Positions 3,764 through 56,267 are shown, counted from the first letter of the whole stretch. The stretch is 60,566 bases of DNA, filler included, from Hausera hauseri (GCA_046269625.1; 11 parts of 11 records of this genome joined end to end with filler, not necessarily neighbours in it); one strand, 5' to 3'. Numbers and translations: made by a program. The notes: generated from the sequence alone by a model not told the origin.

Positions 3764-4145
3764 GGTATTTTTTTAGAGCTACAACAGTATGATCAAGTAC
3801 GGGTTCGGTGTGATGCAGGCCGAAAACAAGATGGAGGATCCTTTGTTTTGAAAAGACACAGAAGACTCCTCCCCACAGACTCCTCCCCCCGACCAATCAG
3901 TGACCGACAGTGTTTCTGACATCACGGCGCGGCTCGCTTGGACCCCTTCGGGAAGCAGGGCCAGAATTATCGGGTAGAGCAGGTACGGGGTACTAGTGGA
4001 AAAGGCCTCAAACACGGGCCAAGCCGGAACTATCCGACCCGCGCCGAGCCAGTGGAAAAGGGGCATAAATGCACCTGGTGTGTAAGCTATCGTGGTTGGG
4101 ATCAGCTACAGATACCAGTTAAGGGATGGGTCATGCTGTAAAAGT

Positions 4146-8660: not shown

Positions 8661-9249
8661 NNNNNNNNNNNNNNNNNNNNNNNNNNNNNNNNNNNNNNNN
8701 NNNNTTAATTAATTAANNNNNNNNNNNNNNNNNNNNNNNNNNNNNNNNNNNNNNNNNNNNCAACACCTCATCATTTTCACATGCTGGATAAACATTTTCC
8801 ATTGTCAACAATATTCCCATCGTCATTATCAGACATCAAGTACGAATTCCTTCGAATGGATGCTGACATGAACACAGATGACTTCCTAATCAATCTCTTT
8901 AATATTCTTATCATATTCATACAGCTTCTGTGCTCATGACTACACGCGATGCAAGGATAAAACAATCAAACAACGATAGCACCAGCCGTGAAGATAACAA
9001 CGACAATCAAAATGAAGATCCACGAAAATGCTGTCTCAAAACAGCCGAAATAACCTCAACCAAATACCAACCTCTTACATCGTGTCGAATCCAACTCCAC
9101 CTATACATGACGCCGAAATTACATCCGCCAATCTATATTTATTACAATAACCCTTCTAACCTGTAGTTTTTGTTTCCCCACGTTTTCACCAGTCGTTTAA
9201 TCGACTGAATTTTAGTACTTGTATTGTGCGGCCTATACAAGGCTTTTTG

Positions 9250-10830
9250 AACAATGCAAATTTCTAAACAATGATTCCCATTTTGCTTGGTAGCAAGTGC
9301 CTTCTAATATCTTAATCATAGCTCGGTTCAATTCATGCGTACGTTGGCGTGGAATAGCAAAAAATTGTCTAAATGCTTCAACTTCCTTTAGTCTATAAAT
9401 ACCTTAAGTTGCAGTGTCTTGAAATTTGTCGTCCGTTATTCCTTTGACTACGTTAGTTCCCGTTAATTTACTTGGCGGAGTAATTATACCTCCATTTGGT
9501 AAACTTATCCAGTCAGTTTCACTGAGTCTGAACTTTGGTTCTCTTAAACTAGTTTTACATACTTTCAGAATCGTTCGTTAAGTTGAGTGTGCTAGTAAAA
9601 TTCTCGGCATATTCTGATATAATACTGCCAGTTCTTGGATGCATCTTTTTTCTTCAACATTTATGGATGCGTGTCTTCTTTCGCACTCGTAGGGTAATAA
9701 AACTTTGTTAATAACCTGACGAAAGACACCATCCTTCATTGGAATTATTGGTGACACTAATTGTGGATTAGCATATATTATAGTAATTTTAGTTATCATA
9801 ATGTCTAAGTCTAATTTGCAATCATTGGTTATCATTTTATTATACAGTTCGGTTATTCCGGTTTGTCCTTTGAAACAGAAGTAGTCATCTCTATTCTTCG
9901 AGTAATCCTCGATTAGTATATCTTGTGTTTCGAGTTTGAATTTCTGAGAATTTATTTACGTTTCGGCAACAAAAAATGCTTCGTAACTGGTGGCGTACGT
10001 CATTGCGTCACAGCGTGTGAGTACGCTTTTTTCATAAATTTCAACCCATTAGTATCGGAAACCAATACGGTTGACGTGGGTTATTCTGCTACTTCTCGCG
10101 TTTTCGAACCAGTATCCATACTGCTTATATAACGTTTTCTTGACGTTTTGCGAAACTCTAGTTCTTTAATTTTTATAAAGTTACAATGAGTTTTCGCTGG
10201 GGGTTCCCAAATTACGGGTGTACTTCTAAATGCACAAATGCCGACTTGTATATGACACTTGATTTTCAGTATAGAGTTTAGTACTGCTAGGAAACATCAC
10301 TTTTTGTGCACGCATTTCAGATTCATGAAAATCAACAAATATTACGCCTGCATTTATTCCTTTTCCGGTGTCATATTCAGCTCCACTGCATACGCCGGTA
10401 TGCATATATAATTTTCCGACTGCTACTTTAAGTTATCAAATTATTTTTCCTTGTTGTACTTCAAGTTCCATTCCATCCCAATGTAATCTACCCGTTTCTC
10501 TAGCCTGTTTACAATGTTGCCTTTCTACGTTCATTGGGATTGGTGAAATTGTCGGATGTTGTATTGATGAATGTCCATGCATTAGTCCACAGTGGAAAAT
10601 ATTATGGGATCTTAGTAGCATACATTCTATTCCGTCTAACAAGATTAGTTAACGTTGTTGTTATAATACATAATTTTTCTCTTCTGCTTCTAATTTCTGT
10701 GGCTTTACGTCTTCGCACATTTCTAAATCTATTAGAGAATATTTTCGACCAAGTCTGAATTTGTCCCAATCATGTACTGTAACAGCTCCAATTTGCTTTA
10801 CTAATATCATCAAGGTTAGGAATTTAATTA
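9250..10830 (-). pseudogene. Decayed chuvirus-like glycoprotein (env), second copy or subfamily
   Basis: Fragments collinear with 45900-47730: KQIGAVTVHD, FHCGLMHGHSSI, HCKQARETG, MITNDCKLDLDIM..YANPQL. Many frameshifts. Confidence 0.85.
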
Positions 10831-12940
10831 ACCAATTTGACTCGTTTCCTCGATTATTACCAACTACGTTCCGTAGCATATCATAGAGTCGGTTATCGCT
10901 AATGACAGAAAATGGTCTATTCTGATGTTCTCCATCTTTTTCAAATAATTTGGACCAGTTTACTTCTCGACGCAATTTTCTAGTGGCTTTCCAGGCTAGA
11001 CTAGTGGCTCTGTTAAATTCATTTTCTCGAGTTGGTTTTGCTTTAATGGCCAAATATAGTAATACCTTCCTCAAATCGTTTATGGTATTTTCTACCATGG
11101 TTTTCGCAATAACTGTTTCAACGGTTTAAGCGCTTTTTGAAAACCTGAAACGGGAATTTCTTATTATTCTGGCTGCAGTATATATAGCCCCTTCCTTCTA
11201 TATATGTAATAGTAGTACGTTACTAGTACGACACCACGTAGACTAGAGTAGTTTACCATAAGTATTAAATTCTTTATGAATTCGTTTAATTCTTCGTTAT
11301 CGGCCTTGAAGGTCGGTATTGATATTTGCCTTAATTCTCAAATCAAGTTTCCTTTATAATCAATCTCTTCTCGTATTTTCCTTGGTCTACCAACGGGGCG
11401 TTACTGCCTTGCTATAACCCATACGACTTCGCTTTTACGTACTAAATTCTTACCATATTGTTCTTTGTCTTCGTCTCTTTGCAAGTACTCGAAATACATT
11501 GACGTGTCTGGTACTTCCATGATTCGCCCTACACATCTGGTCAGTTTTAGCCTTACATGTGGCTTTTTCTTTTGTTTCCTTATTAGCGACTATCACTAAC
11601 ATAAGATTGGATTCGTCTGGGATGATCCCAACGTCTATTAATTGTTTTAGTTCATTCAATATTCGTCCTCTAAAATTAAGTCTATAACTTAATTGGTTTC
11701 ATCTACCGTTATTTATTAACCACTGTTTTACATCTCACAGATGAATAAGTTGTAAATTATCATTCTTTTTCATTCGTCCATTCAGATAATACCTTTACTG
11801 TTAGTCACTTCGAGTTTATCCCTTAGGACTTTATCATTTCTTATTAAAAATTTTGGCACAGCACTGCAAATCGCATGTTCGCTAGATAATTTAGTCAGAG
11901 TAGGAATAAGTTGTCTTAAACTATTTTCAGTAATATTTACCTTAATTAGTTCAATAAAATCTCTTTCCCTCAGCGCTGAATCCGAAGAATTTCCACACTG
12001 AATCTCCGATTTTGTGGGCTGGTCTCCGTTTCGTACAGGGGTACAGTAGTTTTCGGATTCTCAGCAATTATTGCATCTAAATACATATCCCAATCTGGAT
12101 CGTTTTCATTTTCTGGATGTCCGTAGTCAATTATTGGCATCTCTAGTTGTCGGATTGTGTTTGCATTCCGTACCATTTCTCTTACTTCCCGTAATTTTTG
12201 TTGCATTTTGCCCATTTATGTTGTCTGGAAGCCATATACATTTCCGGAAACACGATGAAATAATTTTAACAATTGGCATAATTCATCTGCCTGAATAAAT
12301 CCTTTATATTAGTAATTGGTTAGTTCGGAAGCTACGTATCTGCCATATTTGTACAAATTCTGATTTATTGGCTACTTCCTATTCTTTAAGAGCGTATTTA
12401 TTTTTGTAGACTTCCAAATCTTTAGTTAACTCGTCTGTTACTGTTTTTCTTTATTCGGTACGAATTTTAGTTTTCTGAGTATTACGTATTCGACTCTGAG
12501 GTTGTCTTATTTTTTCGTACCTGATTTCGGCCATTCTACTAATAACAGCGGTATATTGTTTATCTCTTCTAGAATTTTAGAGTCGGGATGGATTTCGTCA
12601 ATTAATTTCTCTACGAAGATTGTTTCGTCAAACGTGAGTCCGTGATCTTTCATTATTTCCATTAATTCAGCATGTAATTTTTCATCTGGCCCAAGCATCC
12701 AATTAGCTGTACTTTCCAGGAATTTTAACACATCTGCAATAGAGTTCTCGTAGTCCGAACAGCACTGTAATATTTTTATTTCTTGCGTTGTGATGTCCTT
12801 TATGGATTTCTCCGTCGAGTGTCGGATCCCTTTTAAGTGAATACTTCTAATTCTAGGATAGAGGTGACATTTCATATTTTGTTTCAACTTAAAACCCGTT
12901 TCTTCAATAATTTTATATATTTGGTTTAATACTGCTTGTT
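10831..12940 (-). pseudogene. Decayed accessory region (Ubl + AT-hook) upstream of env
   Basis: Homologous to 47730-49882: LYPRIRSIHLKGIR, ENDPDWDMYLDAIIAENPKT, YRLNFRGRILNELKQLIDVGIIPD, RPVGRPRK, MVENTINDLRKVLLYLAIK. Confidence 0.85.
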
Positions 12941-13019
12941 GGCCACGTACGCGTCCACGTTGGCCACCTCATCTCCCAGCTTGGGTAGGGTTGGAAAATT
13001 CCCGCCCTCTGGTATGTCC

Positions 13020-13450
13020 GCTAAAACAGGGCTCTTACCTATCGTCTTCTGGACTGTCGATTTCAACGTAAATTCTATTTCTGATAGTATGTTCTCCCAG
13101 TCCACTCGATTTTTCTGCTGTCGTGGCATATATGTATTCTCTGATTGCTTAGAATTGTCACTCAATGATACCGTTTGTGTTGTAGTGGTGTGGGCTCGAA
13201 TAGCATATTTTTATATTCATTGATGACGCCATGTCTTTTATTAATTTCGACTCAAATGCTTTCCCGCAGTCTGTATGTATTTCTTTTGGTGCTCCGTATT
13301 TGAGGATCCATTTCTTTCATATCTCTGCTTTGATGGTTGCTTCATCTTGCTTCGGTATAGCAATTAGGGTTAAGTATCTACTGTACTGATCTATCATTGC
13401 TAAAATGTACCTTTTTTCTCCATGTCTCCTTCATTGGTCCACAGATATCT
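13020..13450 (-). pseudogene. Ty3/Gypsy integrase core fragment
   Basis: DICGP, YILAMIDQYSRY, YGAPKEIHTDCGKAFES, SSPHHYNTNGIIE, TVQKTIGKSP. Stops and frameshifts. Confidence 0.88.
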
Positions 13451-18240: not shown

Positions 18241-18870
18241 TCATGTCGTTGATGTTCGAATTTGTTTATAGACGCATACACCTTTTTGATTGAAAATGTC
18301 TGTTCGTACAAGTATGCCATCGGGACACTGTTGTGTAAAGTCAATGAACAAGTATCCATGTGGCTCGGTCGTAGCATCATGATATAAATCTATCAAGTAG
18401 GCTTGGTTTCGAGGAAATGCTTGTCGTGCAACATAATCAATGATAGTCTGATCACGGAGATTTTTGAACAACACCAAATAATGTACGTTTAGATTTCTTG
18501 TTCGATGCTGTTTTACCTGATGGAACATGTTTTGCGCAATGAAAATAACCGTCACACCACAGTGTCGTGCAATCTTCGTGAACAGGTTGTTGAAGTCCGA
18601 TTGTTTCGTGGCCTCTTGAAATAAATCGTCAGTGACAATAACATCAACGTTGAGTAATCTTTCTGACCGATTCTTATCAAATCCATCAACTACAGTTATC
18701 GATTTTAATTTTTAAAATTCACGACTTGTCAAACCGAACTCACCATCATCACCAACACTCTGATGCCAGTATATGTGATTGTACCGCGGTGAATGGAACA
18801 TGTCACGGTAGTTTTGGAATAGTTTACACACAAAGTGTGTTTTTCCACTTTTACTGGGGCCTACAATCTG
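18241..18870 (-). pseudogene. Polinton A32/FtsK-like packaging ATPase
   Basis: Walker A IVGPSKSGKT, Walker B VIVTDDLF, FTKIARHCGVTVIFIAQNMF, HYLVLFKNLRD, PHGYLFID. Confidence 0.9.
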
Positions 18871-19008
18871 GAAAAGTGCATCATTCTGCTGCTTTATCTA
18901 ATAATAATNNNNNNNNNNNNNNNNNNNNNNNNNNNNNNNNNNNNNNNNNNNNTTAATTAATTAANNNNNNNNNNNNNNNNNNNNNNNNNNNNNNNNNNNN
19001 NNNNNNNN

Positions 19009-29773: not shown

Positions 29774-30568
29774 TAAATTCACATAATTAATTGACCATAT
29801 GCTTTCGATAATTTTTGAATATCGCTCTTAAAATTTGCGTCACAAGTTTTAGCTTTCGTCGTTTTATTGCTAATAATAGCCATAAAATGTCCTCAGAACA
29901 AATATTTCATAATTCCATAAATTTTCTCTCGTTGTGATGAAAGTTTGAATGTTTGTTTTTAAGTATTTCGTTTAAATTTTTGATTGAAAACGTTTGATTT
30001 AGTCATGCGAAAATATAATGTATTTGGACTCTAATATTGAAAATGGCGAAATTGTATGAAAATAAAACGCTGAAGTATTTGATGTTTTACGTAACTGTAC
30101 TAGATCTACTGTAGTTAATTCAGAGAGATTTATACATCACTAATATACATACAATTTCGTTTGTTAGTGATGCAGAGTATACATTTTCTATAAATTCATG
30201 AGTCATTATCCTTTTAGTGTTTGACTCATTTTATAGCCTATTTTGTATAAAATCATATAATGCACAAGTGCCAATGAGAGTAGTTATAAAAGGCTGCTTG
30301 TAGAACGGCCCCTCAAATTAAAAACCATTTTCATTCGCTCACCCTCAACCACCACTCGTTCATGACATTTTAATTTGGAAAACCGACCCATAGCCCTCAA
30401 TACAACTACTACCAACAATTCAATTATGAAAATATGCAACAAAAATGGTGTCAAATAATTCAGATTGCAAATTTTGTGCAACAGGTCGAATTATAATAAA
30501 ATCAGGTAATAAATAAATTTGGAGTGAATGCACAATTTGTAAATGCTGTATAAATATATTCAATAAAA

Positions 30569-31396
30569 ATGGGTAATCCGAAACCACTGATTTTAAATTT
30601 AAACAAAACCAAATTTCAAAATAAACTATTTCCAAACAATTTTCGATTATTGATGGTTGGATTATTTGGATGTGGCAAAAATGTGTTGTTAATGCATATA
30701 TTAATCCAACCAGATTTCTTAGATTATAATAATTTGTTATTTTTTAGTACAACTATAAATCAACCAGAATTACGGCTGTTAAAATCCGCATTTGAAAATA
30801 GTATTACAAAATTGGGATTATTAAACATTTATGAAAATCAGGATAATTTAATTTCTATGTTAAAAAATCATTTACAAATAGAAAACCCATCTCCGGAAGA
30901 TTTAGTAAAAATGTATAAACTAAACCTTGAATCCTCTAATATTTCAGTTCAAGAAATGAATAAATTAGTTAATGAAAATAACAAAGTTTCTTTGACATTT
31001 TCAAATAAATCTGAAGAAATAATTTCTTGTGACAATTTACCCAAAAATAAAAAGAATTTAATAATATTTGATGATGTAGTAAATCTAAAAAATCAAGATC
31101 TAATGAAATCTTATTTTACAAGAGGAAGACATAATAATTGTAATGTAATATATATTTCTCAAAATTTTTATGGATTAGATAAAAATTCAATTAGGAACAA
31201 CTCCAATTGTTTCATATTTTTTAAATTAAATAAACGCGATAAAGATTTAATATTTAATGATTTATTTACCTTTACTGATAAAGCAAATATTGAGCAATCA
31301 ATTTTAAATCATTGGAATAAGAAGTACAATTACGTTTATTTTTGTAGAGATGATGAAGAAATTTACAAGAATATTTTTATCGAATTGAAATTCTAA
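30569..31396 (+). CDS. A32/FtsK-like packaging ATPase (Polinton/adintovirus type), Walker A degenerate
   Basis: FRLLMVGLFGCGKN, LIIFDD, YFTRGRHNNCNVIYISQNFY, SIRNNSN. Confidence 0.85.
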   Translation: MGNPKPLILNLNKTKFQNKLFPNNFRLLMVGLFGCGKNVLLMHILIQPDFLDYNNLLFFSTTINQPELRLLKSAFENSITKLGLLNIYENQDNLISMLKNHLQIENPSPEDLVKMYKLNLESSNISVQEMNKLVNENNKVSLTFSNKSEEIISCDNLPKNKKNLIIFDDVVNLKNQDLMKSYFTRGRHNNCNVIYISQNFYGLDKNSIRNNSNCFIFFKLNKRDKDLIFNDLFTFTDKANIEQSILNHWNKKYNYVYFCRDDEEIYKNIFIELKF

Positions 31397-32360: not shown

Positions 32361-32499
32361 AGAAATGACTGGTACAACCCGGGGTCTCAAAGTTTTTATA
32401 AAATTTCCTTCGTTCACAAGTAATAATAATAATAAAATAATAATAATAGTATTAATAATAATAATAGTAAAAATAAAAAAATAATAAGAAGAATAAATT

Positions 32500-33157
32500 G
32501 AAAAACCAACCCATAGTCCTCATAAAACAACTACTGCAACACTTCAATTATAAAAATGTGCAATAAAAATGGCCTCAAATAATTCATATTGCAAATTTTG
32601 TGAAACAGGCCGTATAATAATAAAATCAGATAATAATTACATTAGGAGTGAATGCACAGTTTGTAAATGTTGTATTAACATTATTAAAATATTCAATAAA
32701 AATGGATAACCGAAACCACTGATTTTAAATTTAAACAAAACTGAATTTCAAAATAAACTATTTGCAAACAATTTTCGATTATTGATGAATGGATAATCTG
32801 GATGTGGTAAAAATATGTTGTTATTGCAAATGTTGACAGAACCAGGTTCCATAAATTATGATAATTTACTCTTTTTCTCAACAACTATTAATCAACCAGA
32901 ATTACGACTGTTAAAATCCGCATTTGAAAATAGTACTACAAAATTGGTATTTTTAAACATTTCTGAAAATCAGGATAATTTAATTTCTATGTTGAAAGAT
33001 TATTTACAAATAGAAAACCCATCTCCGGAATATTTAGTAAAAATGTATAAATTAAACCTTGAATCTTCTAATATTTCAGTTCGAAAAATGAATAAATTAG
33101 TTAATGAAAATAACAAAGTTTCTTTAACATTTTCAAATAAATCTGAAGAAACAATTT
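32500..33157 (+). pseudogene. Second, frameshifted copy of the Cys-rich ORF + ATPase cassette of 30376-31025
   Basis: Near-identical DYNNLLFFSTTINQPELRLLKSAFENS region and upstream sequence. Cut by the linker. Confidence 0.85.
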
Positions 33158-36445: not shown

Positions 36446-37457
36446 GACTTGGGTTATGCTTGTACATTGATACTAACGATTTTCTTGTGAGAGAAAGGTG
36501 CAAACAGATCATTGAAAAGTGTCTTTATAGATAAAAGATATTGAAGACAATAGTAGGACATAACTCCTAAAATGCAGCGTATTGTTGAAGGGAAGGGGAC
36601 GAACCACGAAAATTAAAACAAAAATTTTTTCGCAAAAACCGACCAATCAGATTATACCAAAATTAAATGGGAGTGGGAATAGTGAAACCCAATCTGCGCC
36701 AGAAAATGCTTTTTTTCACAGCCAAAATTTAAACAAAATTTTTACGTGCCAAATTAAAATTTTTACACGTACCTAAAGTCCATGCCGTACGCGTGCTTGT
36801 GTATCACTTTGACTGTGTGTCTTCTATCTCCGCCCTACTTGCCTTGCGTGTGTGTATCATTTTTCTACCCCATGACTCATCCCGAACGATATATTTTCCT
36901 TCCTTCCCTGGGGGTGTATTGGTGTCATGTCCTCCTTTCTACCTACTAATGTGGATCTGATGAAATTGTTGATTTATTCCGGTTATCTGTGCAATGAACA
37001 ATTTACATCAATGAACAGTTTTCTGAACATGTTTTGATTTAAAAATTATTTTTGTAGTCAGATCATCAACATCAGAACCAACCTTAAGGAATCGCCATGA
37101 CAACATCTTACACATGGATGACAATGTAAGATTGGTCAGGATGTTGAATATATCTGTTCGTCCAGTTCTATTGGAGTCAAACTGAAGTTGTTTGGATGAT
37201 TGACAAGTAGAATATTGTGGGATACGCTTTACAATCAGATTCGACTTTTTGTTTGCTAAAATAATTGCATTTTTCAATTGTTTGATACTATCGAAAAGAC
37301 TGCAAACAAGATATTGAAAGATGTCCTTGTTGGTAAAAGATATTGAAGACAATAGTGGGACATAACTCCTCAAATGTGGCGTATTGTTGAAGGGGAGGGG
37401 ACCAATACGGAATAGTCCAATGAAAATGGTTACATCATATAATTTATTTAATATCAT

Positions 37458-38253
37458 TTGATCATCATTTTATTTCTATATTCTGTGGTAAATGATGATG
37501 ATAAATTATTTAGTAATCTGCTCACAGTATTCTGTTATGTCCTTGTTCCTTGTGATGTCCAACTTGTAAATAACAAAACATATTTGTTACAAAATACGCA
37601 GGGCCGTCAAACAGCAATGCAAGCAGCCCAATTTTGTGAAACCAACAATGGTCATTTGCCAATGGGACCATATTTGGCTAATTTGATGCAATTAGGATGG
37701 ACTGGATTCAATTACTATGTTGGCATAACTGACTTGCTTTATGAACGGTCAAATAACAAAACGGGATGGATAAATTTTGATAAGACCGAATTTACTGACA
37801 TAAGATATTGGTCCCAAATTGATCCGGATGATGGTGCAGGGAAGCAAAATGAGGACTGTATTTTATTTCTTTCACAATATCTAGTGGACACAGGTTGTAA
37901 CAGTCCATATCCGGCCAACTTTGTTTGCGTGTTAGTCAATGCAATACGACCAACATCAGCTGTGGCTACAGTTCAACCAATGGTCGTGAACAATGACTCA
38001 GAAGAAGGAATATCAATCATTTATGAAACGAATAGTAAAATTTGCTGTGTCCAATTGTTAGTAACAATAAATTGTATTACAACTAATAATTTCTAGGTGC
38101 CTCAACAGAGGATCCAATTGCAAAAGTGTGTATTACCGACAAGATACAAATACCTGCATGTTGAACATTTATACAGATCAGTCATTGCCACTGAGATTGA
38201 AAAATGAAAGTACTTTGTGGATTCGATTGAGTTTCAACAACCAATCGGTATAA
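37458..38253 (+). CDS. C-type lectin domain + PAN/apple-like protein; intron 38057-38096; start uncertain
   Basis: AAQFCETNNGHL, YYVGITD, YWSQIDPDDG..NEDC...LVDTGC...FVC. Splicing a 40-nt GT-AG intron gives CCVQLCLNRGSNCKSVYY...CML. Confidence 0.75.
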
Positions 38254-42284: not shown

Positions 42285-44814
42285 GTCCATACGCCCAACT
42301 CTTATTTCGCCCCATCCACGTTCGCTTATCATCGTTACATGACAAATTGACTTTCGCACTAGTTATTATGGACAGCTGGTGCTCAGTTGATCGGAAGATC
42401 GTTTGAGACACAACAGTTCTTCATTGTCCTTCTTCTTCATAGATACGACGGTAATCAATGTGGTCGATTTCCGTCTGTCGTAGCTGAACTAATTTAGCGC
42501 GAATTTTCGGTCCACCGTCAGTTAAAATGCTATAACATTTTGGCCGTAGAAATATCCATTCCCGATACGGCACCCGACCTTCACTTTCATCCTTAAGGCA
42601 GCTCATCTTGTTGGTGATCGCACTGCTGTACAACGGCTGATTTGGTGGATAGTTGGATGTGTCCGGTAATCCATCTGACTGCATTTGCTGCAATAGCTGT
42701 TCGCAATTGACTTTTTTCAGCCGCAGGAAAAAACTGCCTGTGTCACCGGCAAATATACTAATGTTACAGCCGTCAAACATTTGCCGGTAACGTGCCAAAT
42801 TGCGATACTGTAGCTCATATCCGCAACTTGCTCAGATCCAATACCACTTGTCCTATGTAACTTGGCCGATCCAGAACGACTTCTTCCCGGTTTAAAAACA
42901 CCACAACCAATCCATCGGCAATGTACACTGACCGCCAAAACTGCGCCTTACTCGTGTACGTGACCAACCGCTTTTCGCTATTGCATAGGTGTACATTGAG
43001 CCGATTTTTCAGATTCTCCAATGTTTTTCCATACAGGGAATTGTTTTTCAGATTGCAGTAGTCCTTTTTCAACTTTGTACAAGTTGTGGTTCATTTCTCC
43101 GAATTTCCATCTATGTACGCCTTAAATGTGGGAGCCTAAGCAAATCGGATTGCACGATTCAGCTTTGTGACGAGTACACCGAGCTCCATGTAGAACTGTA
43201 ACAGGCGCCAATGGATTACGTAATTAAGCTTCGGTTCATGCGTCATGAGCAGTTTCTTAACTTTTGAACCTGACTGACATTGGTTAAATGGTGCGACCGG
43301 TAAATCGTCCTAAACGTCATACAGCTCATCTGGTACCACGAGATCGACTTCCATCAGGTATCCGACTGAGCCTGCAATGTCTGATCGTGGTAGGTTGACC
43401 ATTATGCCGTCCACATCTTGTCTGTCGACAACCCATTTGAATGAACAGTACGCAAATAGTTGTGAAAGCGCCCAGCCATACAGGTTATTAATATCAATAT
43501 ACAGCAGTGATGTAGTATCGGTAGCACGGATCTGATGCTTGTTGACAAATGTCATGCCGCCGTGAATACCAGCATCGAACAACCGGTACATTTCCGGGTC
43601 TTACAGCTGCTCAATGTCTCGATCCAGTGACATTAGAGCTGACACCCAACTCATTTCCGGTATGGAATAAAAGTTAAGTGGCTCCAGACTTTCTTCAGCC
43701 AACAATGCCTGGAATACATCGGCTAATAAATGCACGCCCAGTGTAAGATACTGGAGCATGTAATCCAACATGTTTCTACAGCCGAGCTCTGTCCAAGATT
43801 CTTGTGCTGTATGATATTCAAGTTCTGTGATGCCCTTCCATCGCGGCGGTAATTCCTCTGCTGTCCAGAGTCGCTCATACGACGTTGCAAAGTCAAATGG
43901 AAATATAACTTTGCTACGTGCAATATGTTCGAGGAACTGCGTTGAGGTTGTCGGCACATCCGGCAAGGCATTTACCAGCTTCGCCAGTGATTCATTCAGA
44001 AATTGGAATGAATCAAGGAAGCGTACCTGGAACTGGTTTATGCGTTCTGACAGGGACAGGTACTTTTCCATTGTTGTTGGGATTATGGACAGTTCCCAGT
44101 GCAGAAATCCGTTGATGGCCCATTTCAGTTTATGGTGAAAATCATAACCTCGGAAATTATGAAAGATGAACGATAGGAATGGCTGCACACGCCTCACTAA
44201 ATTGCATAAAGTACATGCTGCTGCCAAGTATCGACCAGTAAAATGGTCGTGATTCGGTACGAGCCGTTCCTGTGCATCAAACGGCAATATTTTTTTGGCA
44301 CAGACAACATTCCTCTGTGACTGCAAACGTCAGGCGTTCATCTTCATCTGTACAAATCAGGGGTTTTGTGCTGTTATTGCGATACCACAATGCAATTTCC
44401 GATTCATCTGTTGTTTCGATATGATGCAGGAAATCACGCACACAGTTCCAGCCGTGAAACATGTAATACTACGGTTGACCTGCAGCTTTTATTGGGACAA
44501 CCAATATTCCGACAGCAATTGGAACATGTTTTTGATCGTATACGTCGTTTCGTATGGTATTGCAAAATATCAGCATATATCACATGTTGGACTGTCCGTT
44601 TTAGACCAATCTCTTAATCGCAGATCCTTTTTGACTGGCATGTACATTGTTGTTCCTGATGCAATCTGTCAGCACAGCGTCACATGCGTTTTCCACGTGG
44701 TTTCTCATCTGAAGTCATGCAGACATGTAGGACACCATTTACAACGTATTTGTTTTTGGATAAACTGATGGTGATCCATGTCCCACAGTCGGTCCAAATT
44801 TGTTACGGACACGT
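42285..44814 (-). pseudogene. Polinton protein-primed DNA polymerase B, different family
   Basis: HDHFTGRYLAAACTLCNL, FHNFRGYD, RFLDSFQF, LYIDINNLYGWALSQ, LKNNSLYGKTLEN, AGDTGS, FLRPKCYS, DDKR...AYGH. Confidence 0.93.
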
Positions 44815-44914
44815 NNNNNNNNNNNNNNNNNNNNNNNNNNNNNNNNNNNNNNNNNNNNTTAATTAATTAANNNNNNNNNNNNNNNNNNNNNNNNNNNNNN
44901 NNNNNNNNNNNNNN

Positions 44915-45240
44915 ATCGATTGCTATATTCGGTAATTGTCTTAGTAAGTCACATTCTAACACTACATCATCTGTTAGTTGCTCAATTACTGAGAATTCAT
45001 GCCGAAAAGATTGTCTTATTATGTGAATTTCTGGTTTCCATCGGAATTTACTCTTCGAGGATTGTCCAAAAGCTCCAATGCTTCCTGGATCCGTCGTAGG
45101 AGGCGAATACAATTGTTTCCGTAGGAATTACGGTATTGAATCATATTTTATCAACGATATTTCAGATCCTGTATCTATTAATGCGTAAACCTTCCAATTT
45201 TCCAATTGAATTTTGGGTTGTCGTATCGTAGACACTCTGT
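44915..45240 (-). pseudogene. Retroviral-type aspartic protease
   Basis: VYALIDTGSEISLI (DTG at 45167-45175) and FSVIEQLTDDVVLECDLL (ILGxD-like). One internal stop. Confidence 0.88.
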
Positions 45241-45889
45241 AGCCGTTGATGGTAACTTCAGTGGTTCCAACTGGCTGATCTATTAATTGTCTTAGCTCTC
45301 CAATTGGGTATAGTTCGTTATTCGTACCATTCGCGTTTTCTACAGCTTGGCTTCTAACTGGCGGCTAAACATCTTGGTTTCGGAGATCGCGTGTCTCACA
45401 ACTTCTGGTAAATAGTGACTGCGTTTCATTTTGTCTAGGTACTTTAGGTAAATATATTATACCGTGATCGTCGACTGCTGAGCGGCGATGTGGGATAAAC
45501 GTTCTCTCTATTTTGTAGATCTTGCGCAATATCCCGTAGCGTTTTGTTCCTTTGTAGGGATCTTCTATGTTAAATGGCTTCCGACAGGCGTCTGTCTGAC
45601 AAGAGCTCATAGATTGTTTCTCGCAATCTTCATGTATAGGTGCCGTTGGTGGCAATATTGGTAATGGTAATTTTATAACAGAGTATTTTTTGTGCCTACT
45701 CGGCCTGGTGATAATGTTTCCTCCCTTAGGCTCGTCATCATCCGAATTATTTCTTCGTGTCTTAGCATTTATAAATTTTTGCCTGTAGTCGAATATACCT
45801 CTTTTCCGTTTTCGATTATGGTAGCCAACATGTCGTTCTACATTTGTTTTCCATTTACTCTCTTCATAAGCCTTTAAGAATTTGCCGAA

Positions 45890-47730
45890 AGGAGTAATAA
45901 TAGCCGTTAAAATTTTGCACGAAAATCATGTTAGGGTAAATATCTCATATCCATTTATGATTGACTAAATTATAGCTTTTACCAATTGAATTAAAAAATA
46001 TATCGCTAGAAATCCTGACGCGGCTTGTCCGAATATCAGGAATCTTCTCCAAATTTTGTATAATATTTCTGTAGTTACTTTCTTATAATAACCAACACCA
46101 AGTAATGACTCCCATTTTGCTTGGTAACGCGAGTCACCTAATATTGTGTGCACTGCTCGATTCAGTTCGTGCGTACGTTGACGAGGAAAAGCGAGAAATT
46201 GTCGGAACGCCTCTACTTCTTTTGGTCGGTAAATGCCTTTCGCGGCTGTGTCCTGAAATTTATCGTCAGTTATTCCCTTTATTAAGTTCGTTTCTGTCAA
46301 CTTGGCAGGTGGCGCGATAAAGCCACCGTTCAATAAACTTACATAGTCGGTCTTGCTACGTCTGAACATCGGTTCTCCTAAGCTAGTTTTACAGTCTCTA
46401 AAGATTGTCGATTGAGTGGCATTTGCCAACAACACTCTGGTAATTGGCGTTGCTAATATCGGTACGTCTTAATATATCACTGGGAGTTCTTGTATACATC
46501 TCTTTTTTCCACATTAATCGGTATGTCCTTTTTCTCGCACTCATACGTCAATAGGACGTCTCCGGTTACTCGTCCAAAAACACCTTCCTTAATCGGAATT
46601 ATTGCTGATGCCAACTCGGGATTTGCATATATTAGAGCTAGTTTAGTTCTCATGATTTCCAAGTCCAATTTACAGTCGTTCGTTATCATTTTGTGATATA
46701 ACTCTGTTATTCCGGATTGTCCTTTATAGTAGAAATAGTCGTCTCTCTTTTTTATATAATCCTCGATTCGAATGTCTTGAGTCTCCAGTTTAAACTTTCT
46801 AGTGTTTATTTCTGTCTCAGCTACAAAGAATGCCTCATAATTTTTGCCATACTTTATGACATCGCATCTTGTGAGTACATCTTTTTTTACAAACTTTAGT
46901 CCATGAGTGTCAGAAATCAGTATAGTAGGTGTGGACTGTTCTGCTACCTCTTCTCGTGTCTTAGAATTATTTTCTGTACTACTTATGTATTGTTTCCCTG
47001 TCGTTTCATTGAACTTAAGTTCTTTAATTCTGATAAAATTACAATCGGTCTTGGCTAGGGGTTCCCAAATTACTACAGAACTTCGAAACGGACATGTGCC
47101 ATCCTGAATGTGGCACTTGTGGTTTTCTGTGTAAAGCTTTGTAACGCTATGGAACATCACCTTTTGTACGCGCATTTCGGTTTCATAAAAGTCTAGTACT
47201 ACGACGTTCGATTCTAGTCCTTTCGCGGTGTCGTATTTGGCAGCTTGACAATGCCCGGTGTGCATATCCAACCTTCCTACCGCTACTTTATACACTCTGA
47301 TTATTTTCCCTTGTTGCATTTCTAATTCCATGCCGTCCCATTTTATTATTCCCGTTTCTCTAGCTTGCTTACAATGTTGTCGTTCTAAATTCATCGGAAT
47401 TGGTGGCGTTGTCGGTTTGATTATTGATGAGTGTCCATGTATCAGCCCGGTTTGATTATTGATGAGTGTCCATGTATCAGCCCACAATGAAAGATGCTGC
47501 GAGATCGTCGCAACATACATTTTACCCCATCTAGGGTAAGTAGTTTGCGTTGTTGATATAATATATAACTTTTCTCTTTTGTTTCTAATCTGTGGGGCCT
47601 CGCATCTTCGCACATTTCCAAGTCCATTAACGAATATTTTTGGCCAAGTCTGAATTTGTCACAATCGTATACTGTGACTGCGCCTATTTGTTTTATCAAC
47701 ATCATCATGGTCAGAAAGTTTATTAGCCAA
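45890..47730 (-). pseudogene. Chuvirus-like (class III/gB-type) envelope glycoprotein with internal signal peptide and C-terminal TM
   Basis: VYDC, SL.D.E.C, C..RRSRSIFHCGL..HS, C..ARETG, G.C, C...DG.C...VIW, G.FG.VTGDV...YEC, FGQAASGFLAIYFLIQLVK.II.SIING. A 35-bp duplication at 47413-47482 and other lesions. Confidence 0.85.
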
Positions 47731-50700
47731 TTCGATTCGTTTCCTTTGCGATTTCCAGTTACATTTTGTAGCAGTTCTCCAAATCTGTTATTATCGAAGA
47801 AAGATCCATTTTGATGTTCTTCCTCTTTTTCGAATAATTTAGACTAGTTCACCTCTCGAGGTATTTTCCTGGCAGCCTTTTTTGCCAAACTAGTAGCTTT
47901 TTTAAATGAATTTTCTCGATTTTGGTTAGTTTTGATGGCCAGATATAGCAGTACTTTTCTTAATTCTTCTATGGTATTTTCCACCATAATTTTTTCAATT
48001 ATCATTTCATCGCTTAAGGTACTTCTGGATAATTTACACCGGAGGCTTTTCATGGCCATGGCGGCATTTAATATGGCCTTCTCTTTCTCATCCAATATAT
48101 CACCGCTGAGGCTAGAGTGGTTTACTATTTGTATCAAATCTTTCATCAGTTCGTTTAGTTCCTCATTATCCGCACTACCGGTCGGTATGGACATCTGCCT
48201 CAATTCCCTAATTAAGTCTCCATTATAGTTGATTTCTTCTCGTATCTTCCGTGACCTACCGACAGGATGCTTCTGTTTTATTACAACAGGTATACTGCCA
48301 TCGATCGGTAATAAATTTTTATCATATTGCTCATTACCTTCATCTGTTTGTAGGTACTCGAAATATACTGCTGCATCTCGGACTCCTATTATTCGTCCTA
48401 CATGTTGTTCTGCTTTAGCCTTCCTTATAGCCTCCTCTGTTGTTTCGTCGATAGCGGTGGTTATCACCAACCGGTTCACTTCACACGGAATAATTTCGAC
48501 TTCTATTAATAGTTCCGACTCGTCCAGTATCCTTTCTCTAAAATAAAATCTATAACTCAGCTCATGGGCGTATCCATTGTTCTTTATCCACAGTAATACA
48601 TCCTTTGCAAGGGAGCGCGTAGTGAACTTTTGCTCCTTTTCGCCCATCCAGTCTGATACTATCGTTACTGGGATCATTTCCTCTGCCTTTGCCTTTAAAA
48701 TTTTAGCATATTCCTTAAGTAAAAGCATAGTTACCGTACTAGAAATCGTATCTTGGCTAGCTAATTTAGTTAAAGTGGGAACTAGGTGTCTTAGTTGATT
48801 TTCAGTGAGGTTCACTTCAATTAAATGAATTAAATCTTTCTCGGTTTGTACCGGGTCCAGAAGCATTTCGACGTTAAACCTTTGGTCCGGAGAATATACC
48901 TCCATTTCCTCCAATCGTATTGGAGTTTTCGGATTCTCGGCAATTATTGAGTTTAAATAGGCCTCCCAATCTGGTTCATTTTCATTATCTGGTGGTTGAT
49001 AGCTCCTTGACAGTATGTCATTTGGCCTGTCTACACTTGGTGGCCATGTAGTTGCTCTGAGTTCTTGTAGTTTCTGTTGCATTTGGACAATTTTCGTTGT
49101 TCGGAAACATCGTCCATTAGCGGACGTTTGGTGGAGCAGTGTTAACAACGAACATAATTCTTCGGGTAAAATTAGCCCTTTTCTTGATATTTCGTTAGCT
49201 CAGACGTGACATCTCTTTGCCATGTTTGAATGAACAGTGACTTGTCAGCTTTATCGGCTTTTATAAAGGCGTATTTGCTTTTATAGACTTCGAGTTCTTT
49301 AGCCAGTTCGTCTAATCTCATCGCTCTCTGTTTCGTCTTAATGCAAGTTTCTTAGACTTGCTGTATCTGCTGTAACAATTGTCTTAGCTTCTCGTCGCTA
49401 ATTTCTGCCATTTCTGCCATCAATAGTGCTAATTCGTGCATCTCGTTAATACTCTTTGAATCCGGATCTATCGCATCTAATAATTTTTTTACAAACTTGA
49501 TCTCTTCGAAACTAAGGTGATGGTCGTTCTTTATTTTAATTAGTTCAGTATGAAGTCTCTGATCCGTTCCGTCCATCCATCCTTGTAAGAATTTCACCAT
49601 TTCTTCAACGATCGACCGATATTCGGGACAAAAGTCCAAGGTTTTAAGATCTCGGATCGACATTTCCTCGATAGGCTTGGCTGTCAAATACCGTATCCCT
49701 TTTAAACGGACATCTCTCAATCGCGGATAGAAATCGCAAGTCGCATTCCGTTTCCTCATGAAGTTTGTTTCTTCGATCATCTTATATATATCCTCTAGTA
49801 TCAGCATCTGTTGTTTCCTTTCCATAAAATCTAATTGACGCAGCGTCTCGAATTGGGTTCGGATGTCAATTTCTCCTCTCATTGTATCTAGATTTCGGGC
49901 GTCTTACTCTAATTGCTTCTTCACTGTAGTCTCGCTCTCCGGAAATTCGTTTTTTCGACTGTTTATCAATTCACTCAACCTTGTTATTACTTTGGACCAT
50001 TCGTTCAACTGATTAGCGATTTTTGGCTTTGCCAATATCGCTTTATCTAACAGTTTGCGAGCGTCTTCTAGCTCATCATCTGGACCTTTAATAAAATCAA
50101 TGACCCAACAGGCGTAATCGAACTCGTATTTATATTTGTCAAATTCGAGGATACAAACCAGAATTATTTTCTGTGCCTCATTATTAGTCGGTTGCATAAT
50201 CCTGTTCCTTAGACCATATATCTGGAATTGTTTTTCGGCTTCAATTTTAATACGATTCTCCAGATTTGTATATTGCTTGGAGGCCGTCGAAGCGATCTTT
50301 ATCATTTCCGTTAAGGGTGGAATACCTATCGGATCTATGCCCAACATCTCTAAGTCCTTTGCATCTTGTTTCTTGACCGGCTTCTTTTTTAGTTGCTCGA
50401 CTATAATGAATCTAATTACTTCCATGACACGCTCCAATTTACGTACTATTCTTTTTAATTTCGGGTTGGCTTTTAATGTATCTAGTAACGACTGGGCTTG
50501 ATTGATTCTAGTTTGAATGCTTTGGGTACTTTTATCCCACGTCTCCGGAAATTTCGTCTTACGTTTGATCCACCGTTCTAATTCACGTTTCCACTGAAAT
50601 ATCGTTTGTTTTGCCAATTCTTCGGGCTGATCTAAGTTTATAGCTTCACTTAGTTTTCCTTTACTACATAATTTCATATTTTTATATAGACTCTCTACAA

Positions 50701-51241
50701 ACTGTTCTTCCTTACCAGAAATATCCACTTGTTCGCTAATTACTTTGAGTTTCTCTAGGTTCTGTCGTAATACCTCTGGGGTGCGACAATTCTTCCTCAT
50801 TCTTTTTAACTCCTCTGCATCTTTCCACGAGCATTTAATTTTCCACTTTTTAGGATCGAGTTTCTCCTCTTGTTCTGTTTCCTCTTCGCTAGTGGGTAAA
50901 TGGCATGCGTCATTTATTTTATTTATAGATTTCGTCGGCTCATCCATTTCGCTTGGCGTAACTAAATTAATTTCCGGAACGCTCGATGCGCATTCCGCGT
51001 CGCTTTCTAACGCGATTTCAGTTTCTCTCCTTGTGCTCGACTTTTGCTTAAACATTGGGGATCTCGAACGATCCTTACGTTTTTGTCTCAATGATGGGCT
51101 ACGGCCTCTATTCTTGGTAATTTTAAGTATGTGGTTCAAGAAATTTTTCTTTTTCGTCGAACTCTGCCTCCTTAGTTACCGTTTTTATAGTATATTTGGG
51201 TTCTACATCCAAATCTGCTTCACCTGTGTCTTAGGCTTTTC
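47731..51241 (-). pseudogene. Accessory polyprotein region between Gag and Env (charged/helical part, HAT-like repeat, Ubl at about 48460-48677, AT-hook-like)
   Basis: ORFs of 411, 176 and 434 aa separated by stops or frameshifts. The 434-aa ORF is in frame with env across one stop that is Trp in the 10.9-kb copy. Confidence 0.75.
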
Positions 51242-51341: not shown

Positions 51342-52862
51342 AACGAGGGACTACGGCCTCTATTTTTCGTAATTTTAAGTATGAGTGGTTCTAAAAATTC
51401 TTCCTTCTCTTCAACGTCCTTTTCCTCGGTTTTCTTTTCCCCGGTATGCTCCGGTTCTACTTCCGTAGCTGCTTTATCCAGAGTCTCAAGTTTCTCTGTC
51501 TCCTTGCTAATCTTAGGAAGGTTCTTCCTTCGTGCCATGTCAGTGAGCCTTCCCGGGGCGATAGAATGTTCGTATTCTGTTTCGGGTTCGCGCAGGCCAT
51601 GGTAGACTTCCATTAGCCGTAATTTATGTTCATATTCGTTTCTAGCCACTAAAACTTTAGGGTCATTAGATTCTGGCTGGCCTTTTAAAAAACGTCGTAA
51701 GTCTTGTATCTCAATAATCATACCCGTATCTCTACGGCCGCCATAAATTGCTTCTAGGTTCTCATTCCTTATTACGTTAGTTTTACAGGGTTCTACAAAC
51801 GAGACGCTTCGCGGATTCGGACAGGACCTCGCTATGTGTCCTTCTTGTCCACATGTAAAACATACTAGATTGCCGTTTCTTCTAACCCTTTGACGACCAT
51901 CTTCATTTAATGGAGATTTAGATCTGCTCGGATTTCTATTGTAATTTGCTGTTGTGAAGCCTGTCTAGGGTCTCCATACTGACAATTGTCATAATTCCGG
52001 TTATCGCTCTGTCGGTTTCCACTGTTAAAATTCCTTGGGCCGTCTATGCGTCTGTCCGCATTATAATTCGCTTTATTCGAATAGCTATTCCGGCCAAAAT
52101 TCTGACTGTATCGATCGTTCATACGATTATAATTATCGTTTCTGTTGTGATTTCCGTAATTCTTATTATACCGTCTATCATTTCTATTATTGCGGTTCCT
52201 ATCGTTTCGATCGGCTTGGCCATTATTTCTATCGTTTCTGTCATTGTTTCTGGCATATCTATCCAATGCCATTTCCAAATCCTGAGCTAATTCCAATGTT
52301 CTATCAAAATTCTCGGAACGTGCAAAAATCAACTGCCTTACTATATCTTTAGACCATATACCATTTATTAGCTGCGTCATCATCATGACGTCCAAATCGG
52401 GAGGACTTGCTTTTCTGCGGCTTCGTGTTCTGCTTCATTTTTAGCCTTTGCTATGTTTGCAATCCTCAAGGTGCTTACGTAACTGTTTGTCAATTTCTTT
52501 AAGGCGAAAGCAAATTGGGTTATCGATTCACCCTTTTGTTGAATTCTATTTTGGAAAGCCAGAAGTTTTTATTGCTGGGTTACGGTTGGTAGCAATTTCC
52601 GATTCAAGGCTCTTACCAGTGAGGACCAGGTCTTCTTCTTATCATCTGTGAGTTCACTATAGGCATCTGCGGCCAAATTCTTTAAATATAGCGATAAACG
52701 CTTAATCATTACGTTAGCTGCTAGTCCAGCACCTTCTGCGTGCAACTTGTACGTCCTTAAAAATTCATTGAGTCCATCCGGATCTCCGTCATAGGCGGGC
52801 AAATTTAACGAGTCAAACGTAAAAATATCCAATTTTTGGGCTACTGCCTGGTTTTCTGTCAT
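51342..52862 (-). pseudogene. Ty3/Gypsy-type Gag (capsid + CCHC knuckle) continuing into the accessory region
   Basis: LPAYDGDP..LNEFL..Y, YLKNLAADAY, QQKGESITQF, QLING; CFTCGQEGHIARSC at about 51821-51862, then open into ORF 51721. Confidence 0.88.
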
Positions 52863-53275
52863 TGCTTCGACGCTTAATAACTTAGGTTTAATTAGTTTGC
52901 GAACTTTAATTTTTTTCTCAGGGACTTTAAACTCAATTGGCGGATTAACAGCGTTTGCTTCGATAACTTTATTATCAGTTAAATTTGATTCCGATAACGT
53001 ACGTCTAATCCACGTATTCCCTTCCTTAATAAGTCTATTTCGTGTTTCACGAACGTTGATGTTCTCCTTACCGTTTAAAATAAGATTTAAATTTTCGTTT
53101 GACTGTGGTCTGTCAATATCCGTTCGTACTTTTAAATGTGTCGTTAGTAATCCTGAGGGTTTTCAATCTAAAATTTTAGTCTCTCAATAATCTACAATCA
53201 ATTACTCGATGTGGTAGCGCTGATCGCTAATGTGTCGTTACTTTTCACTAAAGTCAAGTCTAGCAAGTGCAAACT

Positions 53276-53293
53276 GTCCTGCTAGGGTCGCCA
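53276..53293 (-). other. Primer-binding site, tRNA-Arg-like
   Basis: TGGCGACCCTAGCAGGAC, 2 nt after the LTR end TAACA. Confidence 0.85.
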
Positions 53294-53295
53294 AA

Positions 53296-54076
53296 TGTTA
53301 ATGGTTAGGGTGGTCCTTATCCAACGCCCAACTATAACTTTTATTCCACTGTACTCTTTAATTAGCAGATAAGATCTAACGTTCTCGTTAGATGGTTTGC
53401 ACTTTATTTAATTGTGTGTACTGCTTGCAGTGCTTGCGTAGTTTACGAACGTCTAGTCTTAGCTATACAATTTATTTGAATTTATTTCTTAGTGTGGTCC
53501 AAGTCCCTCTTAAGGAGCGACGAAAGAAAAACTATAAAGATTTTACAAATGTACAAATTTATTAAAATAAATACCACACACCGATAACGTAATAGACTTC
53601 AATAATTTCGAGCCTTTCAGATATCTCTCGCAGCAATGTTCACAAGTTCTCTTCAACCAATTTAGAATTTTGTAATCACTGTTGAATTCTCTGATTTCTG
53701 AATCTACTTCGTCCAAATAGCTAGTCGCAAATTTTCTCTTACAATTTTTCTGTCCTCTGACGTTCTGAACGCTCGTTTATATAGTAGCTAGTTTGACTGT
53801 TTATTCGATATTTCCGTTTTCATTAAATTTCTTTAAATTTTCCGACAATTCAATTTAATATTCGGTTTACACTATTCCATATATTTACATTTTAAACCAC
53901 TATTTACATCAAATAAGTCATTACTGATACTGGAACTGTTTACAAAATTCGTAATTTTCGATTATTTGCACTTCAATCTAAGCAAAGCCGGCCTTTTTGA
54001 GATACACTCATAAAATAAACATATACAATTGATTGAATTTCGGCCTGACTTCACTCTACTTGGTAATTTCACAACA
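53296..54076 (-). mobile_element. 781-bp LTR
   Basis: TGTT...AACA termini, PPT on one side and PBS on the other, TATATAAA near 53776-53783, AATAAA sites downstream. Confidence 0.88.
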
Positions 54077-56267
54077 TTTCTCCTCCCTGATCGGCACTCT
54101 CGAATGTGCCCATTGCGTCAGTAGAGGTGCCGTGAGCTGGTCGTAGTCTCTCCATTCGTTCACGTAAGTCCGTTTCCGAATCTAAGCCACTCGGTATTTG
54201 CAAGTCGATATTATAGGACGTACTAGGCCTTTCTTGGAATATCTCTACTATCTTGTTATTTTCTCCATTTGAATAATATCTCAACCTTGTGGCTTCGGCC
54301 CTACATACTGGGCAGGTCGTCTTCCCATTTTCCAGGGTCCACGTTTTTAAGCAATATCTGCAGTACTTATGACTACAGTCCTTATTATCCAACACCACAA
54401 ATCCTTGGTATAAATCTGCGTCACAAACTGGACATTCCTCTTTTTCGGCGGCGTCAATGTCTACCAAATCTTCGTCTACCTCGATTCTTTCGAATACTAA
54501 CCCTTTTTGATTCTGATATAGGTATCCATACAACCGTTTCTGCTTTGGGTCTATTGAACTCTTTCGTGGATCATCTGATACTGCGACGAGAGTCCATTCA
54601 ACGATTTCTTGTTGGTCTAGATCTGGTATTCCTGTCTTTTTATATTGTCTCTTCAGTTGTATTCGTACTCGAGTGTCTACCGGAACTGTTAATCTATGTG
54701 TACCGCTTCTTGACTGGAATACAGGAGCCAAATATCTGCCTACATTATAGTCTTCTTTCGCATACCCATTTCCACTGACTATCCTTCTTGGAACGGTGGA
54801 TACGCAAAATACTGCTTCTTTTATCTTGCCTTTACTATAATACTCTGCCATTACCAAGATGCGTTTGTACGTTTTAACTTCACCAAATTCATTTACGGTG
54901 ATCGGGAGGTCTTCTCATGGATTCAGGTGACGGTGGTTAACCTTCTTCTTGGGAGTTTCAGGTCTCGCGGCTTTTGATCCTTTTTCGTGCTTGTCGCTTC
55001 CCTTTTGTAAATCCTTACTTTCATCTGCTTGTTCTTTTATGACTGATTGGTTTGTAGCTCGTATTTGTCCTTCCGATTGATTCTTATTAGTTTTACTTCT
55101 TTTTATATGGATATACTCGAGGAAAGAGGTCCTCGTCTTGGGTCTTTTCATTTTCTCGGATTCTGTGAGCGGGCCTTTAGATTTTTCTTTTTCTTTGCTC
55201 GTTGAGGTTCTAATTTGACTGGTGGAGTCTCCTTGTGAACTATTTTGGATCGTTATACGGAATCGGTCTTGGCCTTGAGCTTCTACTTTTCTATAACTTG
55301 GGTATTCACTGAATCCTCGTCGGAATTTCTGTATCAGCTATTTGGGGTTATTGTCAGATATTACATTTATATTATTATCTTTGGGCTTCCATTCATGGTC
55401 CCATCGCAAATGATCATAAATGTCCTTAATAAATTTGGTCCGTTGGCTAGCCGTCATTAATTTAGGGAATTTGTACTGTCTTCCATTCATAGCTTCGAGC
55501 ATTGTTTTGAATTGAGATTCGCGTGATGCGGATGGAAGTAAATGTCCGTTCTTACGCATGAGGGTATTTTATATTTGGTTCACTACAATTGGGTTTCGGC
55601 TTATCTCTCGGATACCTGCGATGTATTCTTGCCTGATTCCTAGTCGTTTCAGTGCTTCGTGGGTCTGGAATCCCGTAACGATATAACCATACAGGCAATG
55701 ACTGATGTCCTCCTGAATTTCTAAGAAATCTTTTCCTCTTTCCAGTTGGAGCTTTGTAATTCCTGTAACATCGGGGAACGTGTCTTTAATTCTGACTCGT
55801 GGTGCAATTATTTTATTCAAAATATCCTCTCCGTTCACATTTCTGATGGATACCTCAATCGGAAAATACCATACATCGTCCTTTTCTCCATAGTTAACCG
55901 CGAATATTCGTGTATTCCGGCCATCTGGAACCAATCTGTATGATTCTCCGTTTTGCACTATCTCATCCTCCGTAGGCTTCTGTAAGTATAGTAAATGGGG
56001 TAGCGGTTTCATTAATTCGGATCGCCAAGTCATTTCGATCATGATTTTTGTTGGTATATCTCCTATTCTGATTTCTAGGGCGTATTCCATCAAGCTAAAG
56101 CAACATAATTCGTATGTGCTAAATTTCCACTGCTGTCCCTTCTGTGTACTCCAAGGTTGCCCTTTTATTCGGTATTGTAATTCTCCATCTGCGACATGAA
56201 TATAGAGTTGTTGGTGTGTTGGTTCGTAAGGTACCAAATCTCTCAGTTGGTAGGTGTGAGCATCTTT
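54069..56267 (-). pseudogene. 3' accessory frame: cupin-like, inactive DEDDh exonuclease-like, linker, C3HC4 RING
   Basis: Four ORFs in one frame separated by single stops. EVSIRNVNGEDILNKIIAP..I.D..PDVTGIT..L..GKDF.EIQ..I. CPVC...CSHKYCRYC...W...CPVC. The stop lies inside the LTR. Confidence 0.8.
54077..54088 (-). other. Polypurine tract
   Basis: AGGGAGGAGAAA immediately before TGTTG. Confidence 0.8.

Follow-up and report, generated by a model that had tools for sequence, protein, structure and literature searches.

In Burro, a planarian giant LTR retrotransposon, the env sequence is located in frame between a BCL2-like motif and the protease, within an ORF of 4,873-5,140 aa (PMC6431247). 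As described, Burro in the strict sense is over 30 kb long, has long LTRs and a dUTPase between the protease and the RT, and is hosted by planarians. Signal-peptide processing is not discussed in section 7 of its description (PMC6431247). Elements of the order GAG-ENV-POL with a gB-type Env occur in flatworms (nine listed), nematodes and bryozoans, and their glycoprotein has been likened to chuvirus envelopes and herpesvirus gB (PMC13524379). For arthropods, a study found no clear capture by Gypsy (PMC10084718). This layout raises the question of how a fusogen between Gag and the protease enters the secretory path while the enzymes stay cytosolic. In a literature search, no title or abstract start dealt with how an Env in this position is processed; Sacco 2022 and Grohme 2018 may do so.

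The window, i.e. the whole stretch of DNA that was analyzed (60,566 nucleotides), consists of 11 contigs of 4-8 kb each with N-linkers between them. It probably contains a Burro-like Ty3/gypsy element in which Env is located between an accessory region and the protease, in what is likely one polyprotein, and is predicted to be freed by signal peptidase. The locus is on the minus strand of the contig 44915-51241. A second copy on the contig 8761-13450 shows 67% nucleotide identity to the first over 3758 aligned positions. The end of the contig 51342-56267 and the start of the locus contig are homologous (58 of 71 nt identical to 51090-51158, 82%), which identifies the former contig as a related copy and the source of the upstream part. 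Since the window consists of joined contigs, Gag, which is on the next contig, belongs to a different copy. The element order pieced together from the contigs is accessory ORFs, Gag, an accessory region of about 1,100 aa, signal, Env, anchor, tail and protease. The features are:

54069..54914, minus strand: accessory ORF located 5' of Gag and encoding a RING finger (neighbouring contig, related copy; zf-RING_2, E 6.8e-08)
51907..53162, minus strand: Gag capsid-like region, broken, directly upstream of the knuckle (neighbouring contig, related copy; motifs by eye)
51821..51862, minus strand: single CCHC zinc knuckle, nucleocapsid (related copy; zf-CCHC, E 1.4e-07)
51342..51820, minus strand: 158 stop-free codons 3' of the knuckle, reaching the segment common to the start of the locus contig (58/71 nt identity to 51090-51158)
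47847..51175, minus strand: charged accessory region of about 1,100 aa without a matching family; interrupted at 49904-06, at 49352-54 and around 49180
47844..47846, minus strand: in-frame stop private to this copy; sense codon in the second copy
47679..47729, minus strand: putative internal signal peptide, predicted cleavage after 47679; the PF24664 match starts here, at profile position 5
46043..47678, minus strand: chuvirus/gB-type Env ectodomain, about 530 aa, broken (PF24664)
45968..46042, minus strand: predicted transmembrane anchor (KD19 2.23, the top 19-residue hydropathy peak of all pieces scanned)
45887..45943, minus strand: weaker amphipathic hydrophobic segment 3' of the anchor (KD19 1.54, hydrophobic moment up to 0.52)
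45215..45886, minus strand: putative cytoplasmic tail or linker that leads to the protease in the anchor's frame; stop at 45365-67
44918..45214, minus strand: retroviral-type aspartyl protease, DTG at 45175-45167 (RVP PF00077, E 3.1e-05, 24.6 bits against a cut-off of 20.7)
9230..12940, minus strand: second copy with accessory region, signal and Env; more decayed, ends before the anchor (PF24664, E 7e-11 and 8e-11)

The Env gene is that of a chuvirus-type (Monjiviricetes) fusion glycoprotein. On the minus strand of 46043-47729, three collinear pieces matched the profile PF24664 (Monjiviricetes fusion glycoprotein; model length 653) at positions 5-95 (33.2 bits), 91-390 (61.2 bits) and 396-578 (71.9 bits). 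All three are above the curated cut-off of 27 bits, and jointly they cover positions 5-578. The scored pieces contain 14 Cys and three sequons, with 66% amino acid identity to the second copy, and the pN/pS of signal and Env against that copy is 0.25. Three lesions interrupt the reading frame of the ectodomain: 35 nt are duplicated in tandem (47413-47483), the frame shifts near 46500, and a stop is present at 46469-71. In line with membership of this class, a C-terminal membrane anchor follows the Cys-rich ectodomain with its sequons. The anchor contains the motif FGQAASGFLAIYFLIQLVKAII (46033-45968, minus strand). Both the fusion glycoprotein and the chuvirus-like membrane region of the preliminary description could be located. 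That description gave the gene without its breaks (the 35-nt duplication, the frameshift near 46500 and the stops 46469-71, 45965-67 and 45926-28). Only two strong hydrophobic segments were found in the pieces scanned, and they flank the ectodomain.

A class III fold of Env is suggested by the PF24664 match and by the statement on this Env type in PMC13524379. The AlphaFold model of a 318-aa Env piece, built with no relatives, reached a pLDDT of 31.5. Foldseek returned nothing at E<=0.001 in PDB or BFVD for the single-sequence models of the helical domain before Env and of this piece (pLDDT 42 and 31.5, respectively). Among PDB sequences there was no match at E<=1, and ESM Atlas gave no usable match for the Env piece or the helical domain. 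Protein searches with the Env piece found no relatives in the longer (0/2389 candidates) or the near search (0/660), and the search with the stretch round 45365 gave 0/1 candidate. Relatives were likewise found in 0/11 viral contigs and in 0/80 metagenome contigs with the accessory ORF. Further searches of PDB sequences yielded chance-level matches only, with a best E of 0.0068 and no passing stretch.

Downstream of Env, the frame of the anchor continues for about 260 codons to the DTG protease, and the RVP domain is thus in the same frame as the Env anchor. No Pfam match was found for the tail/linker between 45368 and 45925. The contig ends inside the protease at 44915, and the RT is outside the window.

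At the upstream end of Env, WLINFLTMMMLIKQIGA (minus strand, 47729-47679) precedes VTVYDC, and the two share the frame of the accessory ORF 47844-49199, which is 451 aa long. The only intervening stop (47844-47846) corresponds to a sense codon in the second copy, in which the ORF 10661-11125 reads through at the homologous place. On both points the analysis agrees with the preliminary description. In the related copy, the sequence from the CCHC knuckle runs stop-free into the accessory region, while the frame is shifted just upstream of the knuckle.

The locus contig contains stops at 49904-06, 49352-54, 47844-46, 46469-71, 45965-67, 45926-28, 45365-67 (before the protease) and 45128-30 (inside the protease), as well as frameshifts near 49180 and near 46500. 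This copy is dead: between 47846 and 45128, its frame contains six stops and is shifted twice. In the interval common to the two copies, none of the 17 stops (3 + 14) is common to both. Related contigs from two runs, which represent at most two samples of which one may be the source, cover the whole stretch of the locus (11,202 contigs in run X1 and 958 in run X2, aligned at 85% or better; 30/30 bins). In these, the stop 47844-47846 is missing from 38781.5 of 38819.2 depth in X1 (60 contigs) and from 181.9 of 181.9 in X2 (8 contigs). Five of the six stops between 47846 and 45128 are absent from at least 99% of the depth in both runs, the sixth (45365-67) being outside the positions listed, as is the stop 49904-06 in the accessory region. 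At the frameshift near 46500, the related contigs differ from the locus in 2930 of 4137 depth in X1 and in 67 of 72.7 in X2, and the stretch round 45365-67 is variable in related contigs, with joints at 45331-45424. Neither an intact copy nor a contig spanning the element was found in the two runs, in which aligned pieces are at most a few hundred bases long.

Since no stop is common to both copies and five of six are copy-private, a single Gag-accessory-Env-Pro-Pol frame is likely. The placement of Env inside one polyprotein, as claimed in the preliminary description, thus stands for the upstream side, where the stops are copy-private, and largely for the downstream side, where two of the three stops between the anchor and the active site of the protease are not common to related copies. 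The two copies are at synonymous saturation (pS 0.72-0.75), which together with the low pN/pS indicates that the junction between accessory region and Env is old and has been kept by selection. Overall, the copy is likely a decayed member of a multi-copy retroelement, likely Ty3/gypsy and Burro-like.

The accessory region itself is under purifying selection in comparison to the second copy (pN/pS 0.40 and 0.32). In the Pfam search before Env, a sub-threshold ubiquitin match (E 0.12) was found in one of 15 pieces, in copy 2. The single-sequence model of the helical domain before Env (pLDDT 42) consists of a strand-helix part and, after it, a seven-helix part. By eye and from the secondary structure of the model, SUMO-like and BCL2-like domains before Env, as in Burro, are suggested. 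Among the best 50 VIA-align matches of the helical-part model (pLDDT 42) no Bcl-2 protein was present; the best were integrase core-binding domains (Z 8.2, rmsd 3.8, 89 aligned), which is in the range of common helical arrangements. At these low pLDDT values, the structure searches speak neither for nor against a Bcl-2 or a class III fold. For the Gag-like region, no Pfam match was found at E<=0.01 in either piece, and none at E<=10 for 52380-53162. A frameshift near 49180 at first looked common to both copies; as the shifts are at different places, programmed frameshifting was rejected for this position. Slippery-like heptamers were also discarded as frameshift sites: with 22 in the locus contig, they are too frequent to pick one.

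The putative signal peptide is a segment of 17 aa with a core of about 12 residues followed by a Lys. In the second copy 13 of the 17 residues are identical, compared to 4/17 and 7/17 in the two windows furthest upstream, and in the flanks 11-15 of 17 residues are identical between the copies on both sides of the core. Within 8 residues, each of the two copies has one (-3,-1) site and no other, namely IGA-V. No Met upstream of the hydrophobic core is common to the two copies. In copy 1, the search of about 370 nt upstream of the segment gave no acceptor-like site; in copy 2 there are two such sites, and a Met precedes the (-3,-1) site by 32 residues. The hydrophobicity of the segment is not above chance, as 1077 of 2000 shuffles of the 584-aa stretch reached a KD11 of 2.25, a rounded threshold with the observed value just under it; 607 of the 2000 had a (-3,-1) site in addition. 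Hydropathy was rejected as proof of a signal after this control. Judged from the sequence, Env would probably be released by signal peptidase cleavage at this segment, and a cleaved internal signal combined with membrane-tethered Gag and Pro-Pol is plausible.

The same polyprotein could also contain the segment as an uncleaved signal-anchor, in which case Env would have two anchors and would be split from the Gag-accessory part by the protease of the element on the cytosolic side. gB-type ectodomains have been described with either a signal and an anchor or a pair of transmembrane domains at their ends (PMC13524379), and the conservation on both sides of the core (11-15/17) exceeds the need of a disposable signal. 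However, a core of about 12 residues is rather little for a permanent anchor, both copies have retained a single (-3,-1) site, and the profile of the free viral glycoprotein (PF24664) starts at the segment, so that this arrangement is considered unlikely. Env could, on the other hand, be made without stoichiometric fusion, either by splicing, with the segment as a usual N-terminal signal, or by means of a programmed stop at 45365-67 past which only some ribosomes would continue into Pro-Pol. Other gypsy elements express env as an ORF of its own (PMC6431247), the stop is in the variable stretch with joints at 45331-45424, and the Met and the two acceptor-like sites of copy 2 would suit a spliced transcript. 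These are absent from copy 1, and as far as the signal the accessory region is both open and subject to purifying selection. For Burro, moreover, a single ORF extending through Env and the protease has been described (PMC6431247). A separately made Env is therefore rated as rather improbable.

The remaining alternatives concern the origin of the locus, namely capture of a chuvirus glycoprotein by a BEL/Pao element of the Anakin kind or a chance viral insertion in a retroelement. BEL/Pao elements such as Anakin are characterized by a glycoprotein outside the interval between Gag and protease, a BEL-type protease and three atypical knuckles. Here, Env is located before the protease, the protease piece matches no Pfam family other than RVP, and there is one canonical CCHC knuckle. 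The PF24664 match and the Anakin precedent (PMC7642597) agree with such a capture, but together with the planarian-like Env seen by eye these features do not bear out the BEL/Pao precedent of the preliminary description (Anakin) as the closest one. The layout points to Ty3/gypsy rather than BEL/Pao; as the RT is outside the window, this placement rests on the protease, the knuckle and the by-eye likeness of Env. An insertion by chance is at odds with the conservation of the accessory-Env junction in two copies at synonymous saturation (pS 0.72-0.75) and with the coverage of the whole stretch by thousands of related contigs (11,202 in X1). Both origins are regarded as highly improbable.

Under the preferred reading with a cleaved internal signal, the N-terminal Gag and accessory region would be made in the cytosol. 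A long folded N-terminal region forces the orientation N-in, C-out; on insertion of the segment 47729-47679, its C-terminus would face the ER lumen, and cleavage would take place after IGA. The Env ectodomain would be glycosylated and trimerised in the lumen, and the anchor 46042-45968 would stop the transfer. Pol must be cytosolic, which requires an odd number of passes after the ectodomain, and the amphipathic segment 45943-45887 should therefore lie along the membrane and not across it. With this weaker segment 3' of the anchor along the inner leaflet, the tail, protease and Pol would stay cytosolic. Until the protease of the element frees them, the spent signal would keep Gag-accessory at the membrane and the Env anchor would do the same for Pro-Pol, and capsid, enzymes and fusogen would thereby be on one membrane for budding. 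It is doubtful whether the one segment has two jobs, i.e. serves as Env signal and also as permanent tail anchor of the preceding helical domain (BCL2-like in Burro). If it does, one chain would give rise to an apoptosis regulator anchored in the membrane, a fusogen of class III and a protease clustered at the membrane, an RNA-virus-style processing scheme in a retroelement. In that case the family would also extend the Burro-like elements to a lineage without close database relatives. The two copies mark a conserved candidate cleavage site and provide a concrete topology for intact elements.

Among the known systems, the glycoprotein of Anakin is said to follow the integrase. The nematode ERVs of Sacco et al. 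2022 reportedly have Env before Pol and one continuous gag-env-pro-pol ORF; the position of Env before Pol is similar to the locus described here, whereas the nematode Env rows are less alike by eye. A kilo-residue accessory region is not known from these ERVs. Anakin (Pao with a chuvirus glycoprotein; PMC7642597) is similar in having a viral glycoprotein in an LTR element and differs in its BEL/Pao lineage. The belpaovirus Atlas has its Env inside a single polyprotein of 2,828 aa, but it belongs to BEL/Pao, and its Env is of class II and last in the polyprotein (PMC9094657).

The GAG-ENV-POL errantiviruses with HSV/gB-type Env are similar in gene order, Env type and an ectodomain between signal and anchor (PMC13524379). 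Their order Gag, gB-type Env, protease was found here with the Gag taken from a related copy. In contrast to these elements, the present copy is dead, and no close database relative was found. The Env identified here was compared by eye with the rows in parts 1, 2 and 7 of the 114 parts of supplement 2 (PMC13524379). In these parts, six Schmidtea rows fit best to the Env identified here in Cys spacing and short motifs. The insect rows have the same Cys spacing and a different last motif, and the nematode, bryozoan, branchiopod, cnidarian, ctenophore and collembolan rows are less alike (PMC13524379).

The likeness to Burro/GYPSM1, the planarian giant gypsy-like LTR retrotransposons, includes an Env placed, here likely in frame, after a long Gag-accessory region and before the protease, an Env that resembles mononegavirus fusion glycoproteins, upstream accessory ORFs and many copies, with decayed Burro copies in Dugesia japonica (PMC6431247). 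Burro differs in its two to three CCHC knuckles, compared to one here, and in MATH, BIR and ankyrin domains, which were not detected in this element (PMC6431247). Because of the single knuckle, the element was filed under Burro-like elements rather than under Burro in the strict sense. A layout of this kind is already published, and the locus, a dead copy, adds one divergent family to the described class.

The integrase core in the flank of the second copy, the more decayed relative of the Env-bearing retroelement (copy 1), adjoins the middle of its accessory region on the same strand. Clear homology between the second copy and copy 1 begins near 12940 and ends before the Env anchor (the predicted transmembrane segment), with unrelated sequence beyond (window 8761-9230). 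The integrase beside the accessory region probably reflects a nested or recombined copy, while a natural Pol-accessory-Env order in the second copy's family is a conceivable alternative. This and the other features of the window are listed below.

13000-13448 (-), integrase core (rve, E 1e-13)
4653-7406 (-), ORF of 917 aa, intact, its coding strand A-rich as in the element's ORFs
54915-56267 (-), a pair of orphan ORF pieces, lying upstream of a related copy's accessory RING ORF
458-1300 (+) and 3269-3772 (-), transposase of Harbinger type (DDE_Tnp_4, E 1e-34) with its Myb/SANT partner
18241-21775, 30554-31396 and 43601-44329, type B DNA polymerase pieces (DNA_pol_B_2) and ATPase-like ORFs (ATPase by eye)
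37452-38096 (+), C-type lectin domain (E 1.7e-05)
Ten places, e.g., 44815-44914, linkers between separate contigs (N44, a 12-base all-frame stop, N44)

Neighbourhood across the N linkers is not biological. The 917-aa ORF had no Pfam match at E<=10 and may belong to a related giant element as one of its accessory ORFs; the two orphan ORF pieces were likewise without a Pfam match.

In copy 1, a small Cys cluster (window 45640-45700, (-)) was observed in the cytoplasmic tail, between the Env anchor and the protease. A Pfam search returned no family match for it.

The contig with the Harbinger-type transposase has a higher G+C content. Since this contig looks fish-like, the contigs of the window may originate from more than one organism. 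The sequence at 30371-31025 recurs at 32494-33157 (88%). The regions with type B DNA polymerase pieces and ATPase-like ORFs have the same kind of content as Polinton-like elements.
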